Of a DNA stretch of 64,000 nt, positions 38,555 through 56,100 are shown in pieces (position 1 is the first letter of the stretch; each line of letters begins with the position of its first letter). The stretch spans positions 2,476 to 66,475 of the forward strand of contig JAUQPG010000004.1 of assembly GCA_030550495.1 (NCBI GenBank), in the 5' to 3' direction. The notes under the pieces were generated by a model. It was not told where the DNA came from. It did no database searches and saw nothing but the letters and a program-made list of their open reading frames with translations. This stretch comes from Candidatus Bipolaricaulota bacterium (GTDB lineage: Bacteria; Bipolaricaulota; Bipolaricaulia; RBG-16-55-9; DRXL01). Made by a program: the position numbers and the translations under genes.

Positions 38555-40447
38555 ATGTCTGCCTATGAGCAAGCCTTTCGTGAATCTCTGGAAGACCCTG
38601 AGGGTTTTTGGGGCAGAGCTGCTGAGGCGATCACGTGGTATAAGCGCTGGGATTGCGTGCTTGACCGATCTAATCCCCCGTTTTACAGATGGTTCACTGG
38701 GGGCGTGCTCAATACGTGCTATAACGCTGTAGATCGCCATATTGAGCGCGGCCGGGGCGATCAGCTCGCGCTCATCTACGATAGCCCTGTGACCGATACG
38801 ATCCAGAAGTTCACTTATTCTGAGCTGTGTGACCGTGTGGCGAAGATCGCGGGCTTTTTACGAGAGCTTGGCGTCCAGAAGGGCGACACGGTTGTCATCT
38901 ACATGCCGATGATCCCCGAAGCGCTCATGGCCATGTTAGCGTGTGCGCGCCTTGGAGCTATTCACTCCGTCGTCTTTGGTGGATTTGCTCCCAGAGAGCT
39001 AGCGATTCGTATAGATGACGCCAAGCCCAAGATCGTGCTCTCGGCTTCCTGTGGGATCGAAGTCAAGAAGATTATCCCGTACAAGCCCTTGCTGGACGAG
39101 GCGATCGCGATGGCAGCCCATAAGCCCCAAACGTGTGTGATCTATCAGCGCCCGCAAGTTCGCGCCGAGCTCATTGAGGGGCGCGATCTCGACTGGGCTT
39201 CGTTAGAGCAAAAAGCTCAGCCTGCTGAATGTGTTCCCGTCGCTGCAACTGACCCGTTATATATTCTCTACACCTCAGGGACGACCGGAAAACCCAAGGG
39301 CGTGGTGCGCGACAACGGCGGCCATGCGGTCGCGCTCTCTTGGAGCATGAAATATATCTATGGGATTGAGCCAGGGGATGTCTATTGGGCGGCCTCGGAC
39401 GTGGGCTGGGTCGTAGGGCATTCGTATATTGTCTATGGCCCATTATTGGTGGGCGCAACGACCGTGATGTACGAGGGCAAGCCCGTCGGAACCCCTGATC
39501 CCGGTGCGTTCTGGCGCGTCATATCCCAGCACAAAGTCAAAGTGCTCTTTACGGCCCCCACGGCATTCCGCGCGATCAAGCGCGAAGACCCCACAGGAGA
39601 ATATCTGAAAAAATACGATCTCTCGCACTTCCAGGCGCTCTTTCTTGCTGGGGAGCGCACCGATCCGGATACGTATTACTGGGCTTCTGAGCTCTTGAAG
39701 AAGCCCGTTATAGATCACTGGTGGCAGACGGAGACGGGCTGGGCTATTGCAGGGAACTTCTGCGGGCTGGAACTGTTGCCTATTAAGGCCGGCTCAGCGA
39801 CGAAGCCCATGCCCGGCTATGACGTGCGCATCCTCGACCCCAGCACCGGCAAAGAACTGCCGCGGGGACAGAGTGGCGTCATCGTTGTGAAGGAACCCTT
39901 ACCGCCAGGGACGTTTATGACCCTCTGGCAGCGTGATGACGATTTCAAGAAGACGTACTTCGATCCCTTCCCTGGGTATTACTTCACCGGCGATGGCGGG
40001 TACTTCGACGAGGATGGCTATATATACGTGATGGGCCGTGTAGACGATATTATTAACGTTGCCGGGCACCGGCTCTCTACAGGCGAGATGGAAGAGATTG
40101 TCGCGCAGCACCCAGACGTTGCCGAGTGTGCAGTCATTGGCGTTGCGGACAGCCTCAAGGGAGAGATGCCGTTGGGGTTTGTTGTGCTCAAGGCTGGAGT
40201 GCGCCGAGATCACAGTGAGATCGTCTCTGAGATCAAGCAGATGGTGCGCACGCAGATCGGCGCGATTGCGTCATTGAAAGACGTGCTCATCGTCACCAGA
40301 TTGCCCAAGACGCGCAGCGGCAAGATCCTCCGAGGCACGATGCGCAAGATCGCTGATGGGCAGCCCTATACCGTGCCTTCGACTATCGATGACCCTGTAA
40401 CCTTACAGGAGATCGAGAGCGCGTTGCGTCACGCAAATCTCAAATAA
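38555..40447 (+). CDS. Acyl-CoA synthetase of the acetyl/propionyl-CoA synthetase family
   Basis: 630 aa: YTSGTTGKPKGV AMP-binding motif, WWQTETG, and a C-terminal RSGKILR lysine motif. Confidence 0.9.
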   Translation: MSAYEQAFRESLEDPEGFWGRAAEAITWYKRWDCVLDRSNPPFYRWFTGGVLNTCYNAVDRHIERGRGDQLALIYDSPVTDTIQKFTYSELCDRVAKIAGFLRELGVQKGDTVVIYMPMIPEALMAMLACARLGAIHSVVFGGFAPRELAIRIDDAKPKIVLSASCGIEVKKIIPYKPLLDEAIAMAAHKPQTCVIYQRPQVRAELIEGRDLDWASLEQKAQPAECVPVAATDPLYILYTSGTTGKPKGVVRDNGGHAVALSWSMKYIYGIEPGDVYWAASDVGWVVGHSYIVYGPLLVGATTVMYEGKPVGTPDPGAFWRVISQHKVKVLFTAPTAFRAIKREDPTGEYLKKYDLSHFQALFLAGERTDPDTYYWASELLKKPVIDHWWQTETGWAIAGNFCGLELLPIKAGSATKPMPGYDVRILDPSTGKELPRGQSGVIVVKEPLPPGTFMTLWQRDDDFKKTYFDPFPGYYFTGDGGYFDEDGYIYVMGRVDDIINVAGHRLSTGEMEEIVAQHPDVAECAVIGVADSLKGEMPLGFVVLKAGVRRDHSEIVSEIKQMVRTQIGAIASLKDVLIVTRLPKTRSGKILRGTMRKIADGQPYTVPSTIDDPVTLQEIESALRHANLK

Positions 40448-40453
40448 ATAGAT

Positions 40454-40528
40454 TGGCTCCTCGGGCAGGATTCGAACCTGCGACCCACCGGTTAACAGCC
40501 GGTTGCTCTACCGCTGAGCTACCGAGGA
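40454..40528 (-). tRNA. tRNA-Asn (anticodon GTT) with encoded CCA
   Basis: Minus-strand sense TCCTCGGTAGCTCAGCGGTAGAGCAACCGGCTGTTAACCGGTGGGTCGCAGGTTCGAATCCTGCCCGAGGAGCCA. Cloverleaf with 7-bp acceptor stem and GTT anticodon in the CTGTTAA loop. Confidence 0.9.
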
Positions 40529-40597: not shown

Positions 40598-40718
40598 ACC
40601 CAGGCAGCGCCCTACTCTTGCGGGCCCTCACGAGCCCACTACCATCGGCGCAGGCGGGCTTAACGGCCGTGTTCGGGATGGGAACGGGTGTTTCCCCGCC
40701 GCTAGTGAGCCACCTGGA
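40598..40718 (-). rRNA. rrf: 5S rRNA
   Basis: Sense contains ...CCCGAACACGGCCGTTAAGCCCGCCTGCGCCGATGGTAGTGGG...GAGAGTAGGGCGCTGCCTGG. Ends are approximate. Confidence 0.85.
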
Positions 40719-41177
40719 ATCTCTCGATCCCTCAAAAGTGAATAGAGTGCGTCGCGCAAACGACGGAGCGATTAGGACCGCTCGGCTGAGCAGATTGCTC
40801 TGCGTACACCTGCGGCCTATCAACCTGGTGTTCTCCCAGGGCTCTCAGAGGCCTCATCTTGGGGTGGGCTTCGCGCTTAGATGCCTTCAGCGCTTATCCC
40901 GTCCGGACCTAGCTACCCAGCGGTGCCCTTGGCAGGACAGCTGGTACACCAGCGGTCCAGCCCTCCCGGTCCTCTCGTACTAGGGAGAGCGCCCCTCAAG
41001 CCTCTTGCGCTCGCGGCGGATATGGACCGACCTGTCTTGCGACGGTCTGAACCCAGCTCACGTAACTCTTTAACCGGCGAACAGACGGACCCTTGGGACC
41101 TGCTTCAGCCCCAGGATGAGTTGAGCCGACATCGAGGTGCCGAACACCGCCGTCGATGTGTACTCTCGGGCGGTACT

Positions 41178-41208
<31 letters not shown>

Positions 41209-41673
41209 ATGATCGATGGCCCTTCCACGCAGAGCCACCGGGTCACTTGGGCCTGCTTTCGCACCTGTTCCCCCTGTCGGGGTCACAGTCAAGCCGGCTT
41301 GTGCCCATGCACTCCCCGCCGGATCGCCAACCCGGCTGAGCCGACCTTTGCGCGCCTCCGTTACTCTTTAGGAGGCAACCACCCCAGTTAAACTGTCCGC
41401 CTAGCACGGTCCCGCGACCGCTGTACGGCCGTCGGTTAGAGCCGCAACGGGCGAAGGGTGGTATTTCAAGGACGCCTCCATCCCCGCTAGCGCGGAGACT
41501 TCTCCGGCTCCCACCTATCCTACACAACACCCGTCGAGACCCAATGCCAAGCTCCAGTAAAGCTCCACGGGGTCTTTCCGTCCTGCCGCGAGTCACCGGC
41601 GTTTTCACCGGTGCTTCAATTTCACCGAGCCCATGGTCAAGACAGCGCTGGAGTGGTTATACCATTCATGCGC

Positions 41674-41717
<44 letters not shown>

Positions 41718-42459
41718 TGTCTCTGTTGCACACTGCCGAAGCAGGTGCGGCTCTTACGAGCCCTCCGTATCGCTACGGAGACCGGACCATATCATCACCC
41801 TTTTGGGGCGCCCGACGTATGGTCTCTGAGGATTCCTCGAGCCGTGCCATGATCTCTTCATCGCTATAGCGACGGTTACCACCGTCGTTCATATCGCGAC
41901 GAATTTCTAAAATGCGCGTGATTCCCTCTTGGTGAAGGTGCGCTCCCTGCTGTATGAGCTCCGCGATCTGGCAGAATTTTGAGAAGTCCCGCTTCTTCTT
42001 CGCCGAGAGAAACTTGAATCTCTTGAAGAACGGGATGACATTCTGCAAGATCGCGTTGAGGTTATTGACTTCGTAGTACCAGACGCCATCCTGGCGCTGG
42101 CGCATCGTGCCGCATCCCAAATAGCGCTTAAAGAGCGCTAAGATGACGCGGTCGCGCTGCGAAATGTTAAAGCACAGGGAGATCTTCCACGGAATGTGGT
42201 AATCTTTGCGCGGTCTGAAGACGACGTTGAAGCTTCCCTCGCCGTCAGCAAACCCAGCAAGATACCACCCGATGTGAGGAGGGACTTTTCTGACTGCCCT
42301 CATAGTGCCTCCTCTCTAGGCACGGCCAAGGCCTTTCCTGCGGATTGTCCGCACCGGTCGGATTGTTACTGCTCTTTGGGGGAGAGCGAGTACCGCCGGA
42401 TACCCCGGACTTTCCCGCATATAGTCGGGTTTATTTACGTAACTACAACGGTCAGAGTT
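41718..42459 (-). mobile_element. Group-I-like intron in 23S rRNA at the L1917 site, carrying a homing-endonuclease ORF
   Basis: Exon sequence CGUAACUAU|...|AACGGUCCUAAGG is contiguous only after removing about 742 nt. The intron IGS GUUGUAGUUACG pairs with exon CGUAACUAU plus intron AAC, with a U.G wobble at the splice site. A GGCUC-GUAA-GAGCC P9-like hairpin follows the ORF. Boundaries are ±3 nt because AAC repeats at both junctions. Confidence 0.6.
41773..42303 (-). CDS. Single-motif LAGLIDADG homing endonuclease (intron-encoded)
   Basis: 176 aa: ...IGWYLAGFADGEGSFNV.... GAGAGGAGG RBS precedes the ATG. Located entirely within the 23S intron. Confidence 0.85.
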   Translation of the reverse strand: MRAVRKVPPHIGWYLAGFADGEGSFNVVFRPRKDYHIPWKISLCFNISQRDRVILALFKRYLGCGTMRQRQDGVWYYEVNNLNAILQNVIPFFKRFKFLSAKKKRDFSKFCQIAELIQQGAHLHQEGITRILEIRRDMNDGGNRRYSDEEIMARLEESSETIRRAPQKGDDMVRSP

Positions 42460-43887
42460 ATAGTTACGGCCGGCCTTCGCTGGGGCTTCAGTTTGGGGCT
42501 TGCACCCCTCCCCTTGACCTTCCAGCAGTGGCCAGGTCTCACACCCTATACGTCCTCTTTCGAGTTAGCAGGGTGCTGTGTTTTTGATAAACAGTCCCCC
42601 CAGCCTGCTCTCTGCGACCCCCTCGGACCTTGCGGCCCTACGCGGGGCCTCCCTTCTTGCGAACGTACGGGAGCATTTTGCCGAGTTCCTTGACCATGGT
42701 TCTCTCGCCCACCTGAGCATCCTCTGCCCGCCTACCTGTGTCGGATTGCGGTACGGGCTCTCTGCGGCTCCCTAGAGGATTTTCTCGGCACCTGATCGCT
42801 CTTCCTTCGGTCCCGTAGGACCTCCGCCGCGGCTCGACTTGACCTGGCTGCGGATTTGCCTACAGCCAGACGCCTCGCCTTAGGCACGGGCACATCCGTC
42901 CGCCCGCTGAAGCGACCTGATGCGTCCCCCCTTGGTCAGCGCCGCAGAGAGGGGCCGGAATATTAACCGGCTCTCCATCGCCTACCCCTTGCGGGTTGAG
43001 CTTAGGGCCGCCTAACCCTGGGTGGATGAGCCTTCCCCAGGAACCCTTAGGCATTCGGTGGGTGAGGTTCTCACTCACCTCGCGCTACTCATTCCTGCAT
43101 TCTCTCTTCCGCTTCGTCCGCCGTGGCTTCCGCCACGACTTCAGCCTAAAGCGGAATGCTCCTCTACCGTAGCTCCAGGGCGCACCATGGAGCTCTCCCG
43201 TGGCTTCGGCGCCGAGCTTGACTCCCGCTGAATCTTGGGCGCATTCCCGCTCGACTGGTGAGCTATTACGCACTCTTTAAAGGATGGCTGCTTCTAAGCC
43301 AACCTCCCAGCTGTCTGGGCGGGAACACATCCTTCCTGACTTAGCTCGGGCTTTGGGGCCTTAGCCGACGATCTGGGCCGTTTCCCTCTCGACGACGGAG
43401 GTTATCCCCCGCCGTCTGACTCCCGGCCGATGCGCCGTGGTATTCGGAGTTTGGTTGGAATTGGGTTGCCCCGCATCCATCCAGTGGCTCTACCCCCACG
43501 GCTTAACGGCCGAGGCTAGTCCTAAAACTATTTCGAGGAGAACAAGCTATCACCGAGGCCCGTCTGGCTTTTCACCGCTACCCACAGCTCATCCCAGAAC
43601 TATTCCACGTTCACGGGTTCGGCCCTCCACCGAGTGTTACCTCGGTTTCAGCCTGGCCATGGGTAGATCGCTCGGCTTCGTGCCTACCGCACGTGACTTG
43701 TCGCCCTATTCGGACTCGCTTTCGCTACGGCTGCGCCCCACCGACGAGGCTTAGCCTGGCCACGCACGGTAGCTCGCAGGATCATACTGCAAAAGGCATG
43801 CCGTCAGGCCGCCGGCTCTGCCGTTGGGCATCTTGCGATGCCCAGGGCAAAGGGTCGGCGGGACCCTCCGACTGTCTGTGAGCGGAT

Positions 43888-43939
<52 letters not shown>

Positions 43940-44603
43940 GCGGTACTGGTCCACTATCGGTCAGCTGGTAGTATTTAGCCTTGGAAGGTGGTCCTCCCAG
44001 CTTCACGCCGTAACACGGGTACGACGCTACTTAGGCACGGCCCCAGAGGGACTGACCCTTTCGCCTACGGGACTATCACCCTCTCTGGTCGCTCTTTCCA
44101 GTGGCTTTACTAGCTGTTCGGCTAGAGCCAATCTTTGTGACCTCTGCCACGGGCTGCCCCCCGTGGATGGGCCGGCCTGCAACCCCGCGCACACAACGAG
44201 GGCAGTCTTCTACGTGTGCACGGTTTAGGCTCTTCCGCGTTCGCTCGCCGCTACTGACGGAATCTCCAAAGCCATCTTCGCTACGCTCGAGAGAGCGCAG
44301 GGAAGATAGCTTTGTCTCTTTTGATTTCTCTTCCTCCGGGTACTGAGATGCTTCACTTCCCCGGGTTCGCCTCCCTCCCCTATGGATTCAGGGAGGGATA
44401 CCGCACCTTCCGTGCGGTGGGTTTACCCCATTCGGGAATCCACGGATCAACGCCTGCTCGACGGCTCCCCGTGGCTTATCGCAGTCTGCCACGCCCTTCA
44501 TCGCCTCCAGCTGCCGAGGCATCCACCATCCGCCCGTACTGAGCTTGCGCGACGTGATGCACTCTATTCACTTTTCAAGGATCGAGAGCGTGAGGCAGGC
44601 TGT

Positions 44604-44661: not shown

Positions 44662-45015
44662 TTAGCCGGAGATAGGATCAAGGCGCACCGGGGCGTCTCC
44701 CCACAGCCCTTCTAGGTCATAGAAGCGGCGCAGCTCCTTCTGAAAGATATGTACAATAAAATCCCCGTAATCTAAGACGATCCAATTCTTCGATTCCCAC
44801 CCCTCGGAGCGCAGCACTTCACGGGGAAGCTTTGCTAAGATATTATCAGCAATAGCCTTGACGTGCTTGGGATTGTCCCCGTGAGTAATAACAAAGAAAT
44901 CTGTGGGGATAGAGAACCCGCGCATATCGAGAATGACGGGCTCTTCGCCCTTCTTCTCGGCGATGAGCGCTAGGAGCTCGCGGAGAGTCTCTTCTATAGG
45001 AGCTGAAAGCTTCAT
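44662..45015 (-). CDS. rsfS: Ribosomal silencing factor RsfS (Iojap family)
   Basis: 117 aa: ...DFFVITHGDNPKHVKAIADNI...WIVLDYGDFIVHIF. Confidence 0.9.
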   Translation of the reverse strand: MKLSAPIEETLRELLALIAEKKGEEPVILDMRGFSIPTDFFVITHGDNPKHVKAIADNILAKLPREVLRSEGWESKNWIVLDYGDFIVHIFQKELRRFYDLEGLWGDAPVRLDPISG

Positions 45016-46226
45016 TCTGGGATTTTGAAGTCCTGGCCCAAGATGATGATCGCATCGGCACCGTCGCCGGTGACCCCCTTGGCTGCTAACCCCTTCATCG
45101 TAGCAGAGAGTTCTTCAGGTTTGACAACTTTGAGCAAGCTGCGCAGGCTGCGCTCCCGCAGGAGCTCGATCTTCTTGGGATTGCCCGTAATGTCTATAAT
45201 ATAGCTCTGAGTATAATCAAATCGATCGGCGTTCCCCACATGGACCACGGAGAACCCCTCATTGCGCAGGAGTTCGCTGACACGTCGGGCCAACCCCGTC
45301 ACCCCAGCGCCGTTGAGCACCTTGATGCGCACCTCGTCAGCGGTGACGATATCCATCCCCCGGAGCATCTTATTGACGAGCTGGGCTGTGCGCACCGGAT
45401 CGGGCTCGATATAGCAGCCTCCTTCTTTGGCAGATTTACAGACGGACTCCCCAGGGATCTGTTTAATTTGCACGTGCTCAGGGCGCAGATTCTGCAATCG
45501 CTGAGCTATGCGATAGAGCAAGACCGGTGCAAGGTTCGTCTCGATATATCGTTGAGCTGTCGTCACAAATTGCTGGAGGTCATGGAGGGATTGAGTGGGA
45601 GCCCTCTGGCGCAGCAGGGCTTCGAGAAGCTGTCTCTGGCGCTGCAGCCGCCCCAAATCCCCCGTAACGGGGTCGCGATAGCGCACGTACGCTAGAGCCA
45701 TCTTCCCGTTGAACTTCTGCGTGCCTGCCGGGATGTCAATGGGGGGCTTGGTCTTCTCGTCTTTGAGGGGTTTCTCCACTGTCAGGGTCACTCCCCCTGC
45801 AAGATCGATGAGCTTCTCGAACCCGTCGTAATCTATAACGATATAGTGTTTGATCTCGACGCCTAGAAAGTTGGAGATGACTGTGCGGGCGAGCTCAGCC
45901 CCGCCAAACGCATATGCCGCATTGACTTTCTCGACGCGTCCATCAGGGAACTTCACATGGGTATCGCGGGGGATGGAGAGGACGCGCACCTCTCCTTCAC
46001 CGATGCTGGCTACAAAGATCGTATCGCTGCGGCGCGCTGTCGCCCCGGGTACGTAATCTACTCCTAGGATTAAGATATGGACGCGCTCAGCCAGTGGAGA
46101 AGACTCGACGCGGCTCTTGTACCACCAATATCCCGTCGCGCTCACCGCGATTGATATACCAAGAAGGAATGCGATGCTCAGGGCGCGACGGCGTTGTTCG
46201 TTCTGTCTTCGTCGGATCACATTCAC
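45012..46226 (-). CDS. LytR-CpsA-Psr (LCP) family cell-envelope phosphotransferase
   Basis: N-terminal TM helix, then an LCP domain (ILILGVDY...RSDTIFVASI...RVLSIPRDT) and a C-terminal LytR_C-like region. Confidence 0.85.
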   Translation of the reverse strand: MNVIRRRQNEQRRRALSIAFLLGISIAVSATGYWWYKSRVESSPLAERVHILILGVDYVPGATARRSDTIFVASIGEGEVRVLSIPRDTHVKFPDGRVEKVNAAYAFGGAELARTVISNFLGVEIKHYIVIDYDGFEKLIDLAGGVTLTVEKPLKDEKTKPPIDIPAGTQKFNGKMALAYVRYRDPVTGDLGRLQRQRQLLEALLRQRAPTQSLHDLQQFVTTAQRYIETNLAPVLLYRIAQRLQNLRPEHVQIKQIPGESVCKSAKEGGCYIEPDPVRTAQLVNKMLRGMDIVTADEVRIKVLNGAGVTGLARRVSELLRNEGFSVVHVGNADRFDYTQSYIIDITGNPKKIELLRERSLRSLLKVVKPEELSATMKGLAAKGVTGDGADAIIILGQDFKIPE

Positions 46227-55790: not shown

Positions 55791-56100
55791 ACAGTAGTCT
55801 CCTCATCTAGTGAAATTCTTACTGCAATTATAACTAACCTCACACTTATCGCAAGACCTGCAGCACATCTCACACATGCTCATCCCATGTCTATAAACTT
55901 GTTTACACTCAGGGTGTAAAGTGCTTTACACATCTGTCGTACAGCCATAGCTGAACTCCTTCGCTGTAGGCCCGTGACTTTGCGCCCCCAAGTTTCCCTG
56001 GGTTTGCCCTGAGCAAAGATGACACAAACAGTGTAACACTGGAAAAGTTTCGAGGAGTATAAAGACAATCGCGCCGCTCGCCCAGATAAGCCCAACGATG

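Follow-up and report, generated by a model that had tools for sequence, protein, structure and literature searches.

A LAGLIDADG-encoding group I intron that ends in A in the 23S rRNA gene of a Bipolaricaulota-like bacterium, and the continuous P10 pairing that accompanies this ending in its family

The window analysed here (the whole stretch of 64,000 nt taken from contig JAUQPG010000004.1) carries on its reverse strand a 23S rRNA gene (44550..40752; Rfam LSU_rRNA_bacteria, 2488 bits) that scores full length and is split by a group I intron of 742 nt (42459..41718). The intron encodes a protein of the LAGLIDADG endonuclease family, and its last nucleotide is A (41718), at a position where G is near-universal. 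Alignment of the exons to the large-subunit (LSU) covariance model gives ...GGCCGUAACUAU[743]ACGGUCCUAAGG, with the sole break in the helix-69 loop; the intron follows U1917 (Escherichia coli numbering; window position 42460), a site referred to as L1917, and exon 2 reads AACGGUCC from 41717. Read directly, the intron begins with AACUCUGACC and ends with AACAGAGACA. A first-pass annotation, made from the sequence alone, had placed an insertion of this length in the helix-69 loop, and both the covariance-model alignment and the direct reading bear this out.

The intron was recognized by the continuity of its exons and by a match to the Rfam model Intron_gpI (RF00028) over 42469..41763 (E = 7e-7). 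The score of 34.7 bits lies below the gathering score of 50 because the open reading frame (ORF) acts as an insertion of ~500 nt that the model aligns poorly. The paired regions P1 to P9.0 were written out by hand on an alignment of the window intron and 38 relatives (39 introns); all of the parts given below lie on the reverse strand. P1 is a pairing of 12 bp, with a 5' strand (42457..42468) made up of the exon sequence CGUAACUAU, ending at U1917, and the intron nucleotides AAC, and a 3' strand formed by the internal guide GUUGUAGUUACG (42438..42449). U1917 pairs as a wobble with G42446, and the same U.G is found in 38 of 38 distinct family sequences; the perfect pairing of guide and exon with U.G at the splice site was thus rightly described at first reading. 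The repeat of AAC at the start of exon 2 had been taken as the P10 pairing. The repeat does pair, but the helix is not 3 bp long: exon 2 (AACGGUC, 41717..41711) and the intron strand GACCGUU, which comprises the L1 loop and the 5' end of the guide (42447..42453), form 7 contiguous bp starting at the junction.

The remainder of the fold is that of an intron without P2. The 5' strand of P3 (42429..42424) is followed by a P4-P5-P5abc-P5'-P4' domain (42419..42339; minimum free energy of -34.4 kcal/mol), and the core alignment places the 5' strand of P7, G-A(bulge)-GACCAUA, at 41826..41818, P3' (GUCGGG) at 41816..41811, the P8 hairpin at 41810..41796 and the 3' strand of P7, UAUGGUCC, at 41791..41784. 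The G-C pair right after the bulged A of P7 is the predicted guanosine-binding pair. Within J7/9 lies the 5' strand of P9.0 (GU, 41782..41781), assigned from covariation in the family, and the tail then folds (-32.7 kcal/mol for the whole tail) into P9 (41780..41763), P9.1 with a GUAA loop (41762..41749) and P9.2 with a UUCG loop (41748..41728). The last 10 nt (41718..41727) form a single-stranded tail containing a family-invariant AAC, the 3' strand of P9.0 (AC, 41720..41719, which pairs with GU) and the terminal A. Across 38 distinct sequences, 94% of the cells in P1, P3, P4, P5, P7, P8, P9 and P9.0 are paired, and changes on both sides of the pair (compensatory changes) are seen in 26 of 50 pairs; none of 500 shuffles was as good, and sliding the 3' partners by 1-3 columns lowered the pairing to 31-42%. 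By helix, compensatory changes occur in five of the six pairs of P3, four of the five of P5, one of the six of P4 and four of the six of P9. Convincing conserved pairing was not found by eye for P6, within which the ORF sits, and P6 was kept outside the counted structure. All of the 39 introns and of 92 G-ending 3' domains have the AAC of the tail (41725-41727; 7-10 nt before the 3' splice site), which has no partner in the assigned fold and is identical in sequence to the first 3 nt of exon 2.

Relatives of the intron are numerous. A scan with one genome per species gave 38 loci, all at L1917, with endonucleases 46-85% identical and with host labels that include Bipolaricaulota, Nitrospirota, Elusimicrobiota, Chloroflexota, Acidobacteriota, Planctomycetota, candidate-phyla-radiation lineages and others. 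A metagenome scan gave 357 further confirmed matches, 80 of which were retrieved, again all at L1917, making 118 genome and metagenome loci (single loci are given below as L001 and so on). The family counts rest on 103 distinct introns: 97 (94%) end in G and six end in A, namely those of the window, L003, L004, L030, L032 and L042, which make up four separate lineages in a neighbour-joining tree. The first-pass annotation had suggested that the window intron would be a natural second example of an A-ending L1917 intron, one carrying a LAGLIDADG gene. Such an intron it is, but it is not the sole second example, as five more are present in public assemblies, and the claim of rarity is to be toned down. 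Introns at neighbouring sites in the same loci served as a control: 31 introns at L1931 end in G and one in A (L060), about 10 at L1951 end in G and none in A, and two at L1923 end in G and none in A. A terminal A specific to the L1917 site is ruled out by the one A-ending intron among 32 at L1931; the A-ending L060 makes the terminal A rare but recurrent and not confined to L1917.

Exon continuity, P9.0 covariation, a covariance model and independent assemblies agree with the original reading that the window intron ends in A and not in G. P9.0 covaries across the family (GU/AC, AU/AU, AC/GU and AA/UU), and in the window AC pairs with GU and is directly followed by A, which fixes the terminal position independently of the exons. 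The covariance model R1, built from the 92 G-ending 3' domains with no A-ending intron included, aligns 41832..41706 end to end with 108 bits and puts A41718, at the top posterior, in the invariant terminal-G column; it likewise puts the terminal A of L003, L004, L030, L032 and L042 in that column. The first-pass annotation had named a G placed at the 3' end by such a model as an outcome that would speak against it, and what the model places there is A41718. Five more independent assemblies, each from another sequencing run, have the identical 742-nt intron with the same A, apart from two single-nucleotide polymorphisms elsewhere in one of them.

Two other accounts of the 3' end were weighed. 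An error of sequencing or assembly, or a misplaced boundary, could in principle hide a true end in G, and the intron and exon 2 do both begin with AAC, so that by sequence alone the boundary could be shifted by up to 3 nt. No shifted boundary puts a G at the end of the intron, however, and the U.G wobble of P1 is obtained with U1917 alone, which rules out sliding across the repeat; in relatives with introns that begin with AG, UG or GA, the site can only be after U1917. The recurrence of the A in five independent assemblies, one of them with polymorphisms of its own, the A endings of five other family members and the behaviour of R1, trained on G-ending introns, likewise contradict this account, which on the sequences compared we regard as already refuted and give practically no weight. 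Alternatively, splicing could occur at a G located 3 nt upstream (GAG|ACA), in which case the ligated junction would read ...CUAU|ACAAACGG and the mature helix-69 loop would be 3 nt longer. A G is indeed found exactly 3 nt before the terminal A in the window, L003, L004, L030 and L042 (GACA in four and GAUA in one), but L032 has no G within its last 12 nt. Moreover, it is the 2 nt directly before the A that pair in P9.0 and not the 2 nt preceding the upstream G, the register of P10 fits AACGGUC from 41717, and in the G-ending sisters L001 and L002 the exon has the standard start AACGG. The sequence of the helix-69 loop is universally conserved, which also speaks against the upstream site, and we consider its use very improbable.

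What accompanies the terminal A is found in P10. A P10 that is unbroken over 6-7 bp from the junction is present in six of six A-ending introns and in 12 of 97 G-ending introns (Fisher p = 1.3e-5, for sequences that are not independent); in most family members P10 consists of A1918-U, one or two mismatches and then GGUCC with GGACC. A column-by-column scan of the 103 introns returned only two columns with a minority state common to all six A-ending introns: intron nucleotide 2 (A) and the guide U two positions 5' of the wobble G, which pairs with A1919 of exon 2. The same scan found no core column tied to the terminal A. Nor was a change of G-C to A-U in the guanosine pocket of P7 found among the 39 aligned introns; the arrangement of G, bulged A and G-A-C with G-U-C-C is the same in all of them except for one mispaired position in a G-ending intron, and the five A-ending introns included in this comparison are all unchanged. 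The unchanged P7 and the lack of a linked core column indicate that the pocket has not been re-tuned for A. In the neighbour-joining tree the A-ending lineages are each nested among G-ending relatives with a continuous P10 (L050, L001 and L002; L043 and L077; L082; L049 and L086), which suggests that the continuous P10 came first and the G-to-A change later. On the continuous-P10 background six of 18 introns carry A, which fits near-neutrality of the change. Assuming that the four origins are independent, they would all have fallen on the continuous-P10 background (17.5%) with a probability of about 9e-4.

The ORF (42303..41773, reverse strand; 531 nt including the stop codon) encodes a protein of 176 residues with a single LAGLIDADG motif. 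It is preceded by AGAGGAGG, with the Shine-Dalgarno-like AGAGGAGGC at 42315..42307; outside the ORF, the intron has 156 nt on its 5' side and 55 nt on its 3' side. From a start in the P6 region the ORF extends through P7, P3', P8 and P7' to a stop codon in P9, and its C-terminal ~35 residues are encoded by the ribozyme core; direct reading and the fold thereby confirm the size, the ribosome-binding site, the flanks and the overlap with the core that had been noted at the outset. The assignment to the LAGLIDADG endonucleases also stands: the protein matches Pfam LAGLIDADG_1 (PF00961) at 1e-19, with 71.7 bits against a cut-off of 23.1, and in the PDB it matches each half of I-SmaMI and I-OnuI (up to 8e-37) and single-domain rRNA-intron endonucleases (1e-17 to 1e-19). 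Its motif reads LAGFADGEG and carries the acidic residue of the motif; G17, F18, D20, G21, E22 and G23 are invariant in the family comparison. As a single-motif protein of 176 residues it presumably acts as a homodimer. The ratio of nonsynonymous to synonymous substitution rates (dN/dS) against the closest relatives in the window clade is 0.07-0.12 (about 0.09) at dS > 1, pairs of A-ending introns included, so that by this measure the gene is under strong purifying selection. The ORF is intact in all of the A-ending introns examined. In L038 the ORF is frameshifted, with 106 residues readable and a best-segment identity of 46%, and the intron is still G-ending with its core helices kept; this looks like an intron with a decaying endonuclease gene. 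In L013, L014 and L030 the reading frame is open through the 3' end of the intron into exon 2 (...ERS or ...KRS), whereas the window ORF stops in P9.

Taken together, we think it likely that this is a live, mobile L1917 LAGLIDADG group I intron with a 3' splice site that is set by P10 and P9.0 and not by a terminal G. Free guanosine in the unchanged P7 pocket would attack after U1917, held as U.G in P1. The 3-bp extension of P1 (intron AAC with guide GUU) would then be displaced by exon 2, which would form the unbroken 7-bp P10 (AACGGUC with GACCGUU), and the 2-bp P9.0 (AC with GU) would hold the 3' end of the intron. P10 and P9.0 would thus place the A41718/A1918 (41717) phosphate for attack by the 3'-OH of U1917, and placement by the helices would make up for the poor binding of A in the guanosine pocket; the ligated exons would read ...GGCCGUAACUAU|AACGGUCCUAAGG (...CUAU|AACGG...). 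Only with a P10 that is unbroken from the junction onwards would a G-to-A change at the terminal position be tolerated and near neutral. By cutting 23S genes that lack the intron, the endonuclease, which is of the homodimer type, would be expected to spread it. What the sequences show is where the intron ends, how it folds, its terminal A, the P10 and P9.0 pairings, the association across the family and the selection on the ORF; we infer that splicing takes place at this site, that P10 compensates for the missing G and that the protein is active as an endonuclease.

Several points weigh against this proposal. In the Tetrahymena intron a change of the terminal G to A severely impairs exon ligation unless the pocket pair in P7 is changed as well, and with the P7 pocket unchanged splicing of the window intron could be slow. 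The P10 association comes from four lineages only, in short-read assemblies. The 12 G-ending introns that also have a continuous P10 make this feature permissive at best and not diagnostic, and at L1931 the A ending of L060 is accompanied by no difference in P10 from its G-ending relatives. The wider proposition, that loss of the terminal G is a recurrent and stable state in bacterial rRNA group I introns and arises in the L1917 family only after P10 has become unbroken, is one that we put forward tentatively, as possible but somewhat doubtful.

The intron could instead be a decaying or non-splicing relic, in a 23S copy that is non-functional or that retains the intron, with the A as a sign that function was lost. 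The second splicing step should be severely impaired by a terminal A, and decay does occur in the L1917 family, as the frameshifted L038 ORF attests; there is also, judging by its title ('An unspliced group I intron in 23S rRNA...'), a paper on an L1931 intron of Simkania that remains in the rRNA. The window intron has all of its core helices and P9.0 intact and the P7 pocket unchanged, however, and the remainder of its 23S gene scores full length. Its A-ending clade has a compensatory change in P3 (A-U to G-C in L004), and the A ending has been kept across hosts with 23S exons that differ by 13-23% (window versus L004). The intact ORF, the low dN/dS (which holds between A-ending introns too), the P3 compensation and this persistence across hosts argue against a recently dead relic. 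The helix-69 loop is a universally conserved inter-subunit bridge, and a retained insert of 742 nt is hard to reconcile with function. Without further rrl copies, failure to splice would presumably be lethal. We judge a relic to be distinctly unlikely. It is also conceivable that a protein and not P10 makes the terminal A tolerable, for example an RNA chaperone of the host or the intron-encoded protein in the role of a maturase. Maturases are known among LAGLIDADG proteins, and the strong purifying selection on the ORF would suit such a role. Only RNA positions in P1 and P10 track the terminal A, though, and the same protein family is present in G-ending introns, so the protein fails to explain which members carry A; this alternative too seems unlikely, if not quite negligible.

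The intron element itself is not new: it is an ordinary, widespread mobile type with >100 relatives across many phyla, and the general picture of L1917 introns as common selfish elements is unchanged. The novelty is modest and consists of a terminal A that recurs within one family and strictly co-occurs with a continuous P10. A terminal G counts as one of the defining features of group I introns, and it is used by annotation tools to set intron ends. In the literature that we reached, one natural exception (Coxiella) has been characterized, and the exception now recurs in a different and much larger family, in free-living uncultured bacteria, in introns with an endonuclease gene that looks active by its sequence and always with a continuous P10. 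If the wider proposition is right, P10 and P9.0 alone can specify the 3' splice site and the guanosine pocket is dispensable for the second step; A endings may even be favoured, through less hydrolysis at the 3' splice site, circularization or reverse splicing, and the L1917 family would be a natural allelic series for second-step recognition. For the ribozyme field this is a testable hypothesis on the choice of the 3' splice site, with natural G/A pairs at hand (the window versus L001 and L002; L042, ending in A, versus L077, ending in G). For annotation, the ends of rRNA introns are better set from exon continuity together with P9.0 and P10 than from a terminal G.

The 23S gene is followed by a 5S rRNA gene (40599..40717; Rfam 5S, 88 bits) and a tRNA-Asn (GTT) gene (40454..40528; ARAGORN). 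The Rfam scan found no 16S gene within the 64-kb window, in agreement with the initial observation that the 23S gene is unlinked from 16S, and the operon order is 23S-5S-tRNA-Asn. The operon is flanked by an acetate/propionate-CoA ligase gene (38555-40447, forward strand) and an LCP-family gene (45012-46226, reverse strand), and the same flanking genes recur on the independent contigs L119 and L120. The 23S exons amount to ~3057 nt because of several expansion insertions relative to the bacterial model, among them one of ~53 nt near model position 230 and one of ~45 nt near 584 (window ~44153-44300 and 43800-43860, in domains I and II). They are closest to those of L003, a Bipolaricaulota metagenome-assembled genome, with 96-98.6% identity, and are 91.5-97.6% identical to those of L001 and L002; by these exons the host is a Bipolaricaulota-like bacterium. 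A c-di-GMP-I riboswitch aptamer elsewhere in the window (55932-56018, reverse strand; Rfam 40.7 bits, gathering score 35) is unrelated to the intron.

Further introns crowd the same part of the 23S gene in the relatives. Many of the loci L006-L118 have two or three introns within 1917-1951 (L1917 with L1931 and/or L1951), and by length the L1931 copies form two classes, one of ~200-370 nt that lacks an ORF and one of ~670-700 nt. In L003 a second group I intron (668 nt; L003:1567-2240) follows U1923, only 6 nt downstream of the A-ending L1917 intron; it ends in G and is absent from the window. The A-ending L1931 intron of L060 is an ORF-less mini-intron of 201 nt downstream of the L1917 intron of that locus. 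Its 3' end reads ...AAAUAUA|AGCG, as against ...AAAUAUG|AGCG in the closely related L112 and L114, and its P10 of 8 bp (GAAAUUCC with GGAAUUUC), which starts 3 nt from the junction, is identical in the G-ending relatives.

The introns at L1923 and L1931, which are sisters of the L1917 introns and share their rRNA genes, also use P10 with exon 2. Model R1 matches the 3' domain of the L1923 intron in L003 (66 bits, L003:2159-2296) and that of the L1931 intron in L030 (95 bits, L030:1002-1136), so that the introns at neighbouring sites share a related core. They differ from the L1917 introns in their sites and guides, and many of those at L1931 are ORF-less mini-introns of 200-300 nt. The window protein resembles the I-OnuI/I-SmaMI group and the homodimeric rRNA-intron enzymes (PDB entries 5e5p, 3e54 and 5gkk) in its sequence matches and its LAGFADGEG motif; unlike I-SmaMI, which is matched half by half, it is a single-motif protein of 176 residues.

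LAGLIDADG introns at L1917 are known from bacterial and organellar LSU rRNA genes, among them those of Synechococcus sp. C9 (743 nt, with a protein of 181 residues) and Thermotoga subterranea (774 nt, 168 residues) (Haugen et al., 2007; PMC1995217), and the type is termed IB4 (PMC11019260). The window intron shares with that of Synechococcus sp. C9 its site, its length (742 versus 743 nt), the lack of P2, a complex P5 region and an ORF that extends from P6 through P7, P3 and P8 to a stop in P9; with the published type in general it shares a LAGLIDADG_1 protein of about 170 residues. The compact layout, which the first-pass annotation had pointed out, is thus a known architecture and no peculiarity, the placement of the ORF over the core having been published for Synechococcus sp. 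C9 (PMC1995217). Membership in the published type, represented by the records DQ421380 and AJ556793, is by site, size and layout, whereas sequence homology is shown to the 118 unpublished loci. Where the window intron departs from its readable relatives, 94% of which end in G, is in its terminal A, and its host is Bipolaricaulota-like.

The closest parallel for the terminal A is the intron Cbu.L1917 of Coxiella burnetii, which reportedly has A as its terminal base and splices in vivo and in vitro; it is also said to be without an ORF and much shorter than the window intron. The title of Raghavan et al. (2007), as cited, states that Cbu.L1917 lacks the terminal G, and to the extent of that title the Coxiella precedent at L1917 named in the first-pass annotation is real. 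In the literature Cbu.L1917 is placed in subgroup IB2, and the introns at L1917 with LAGLIDADG genes are placed in IB4. Literature searches for A-ending group I introns gave the Coxiella citation only, and this precedent is the sole experimental support for the mechanism. Unlike Cbu.L1917, the window intron belongs to an IB4-type family; like it, it is inserted after U1917 of the 23S rRNA without the canonical terminal G and has A in that place, next to splice-site pairings that, to judge from the sequence, are otherwise canonical.

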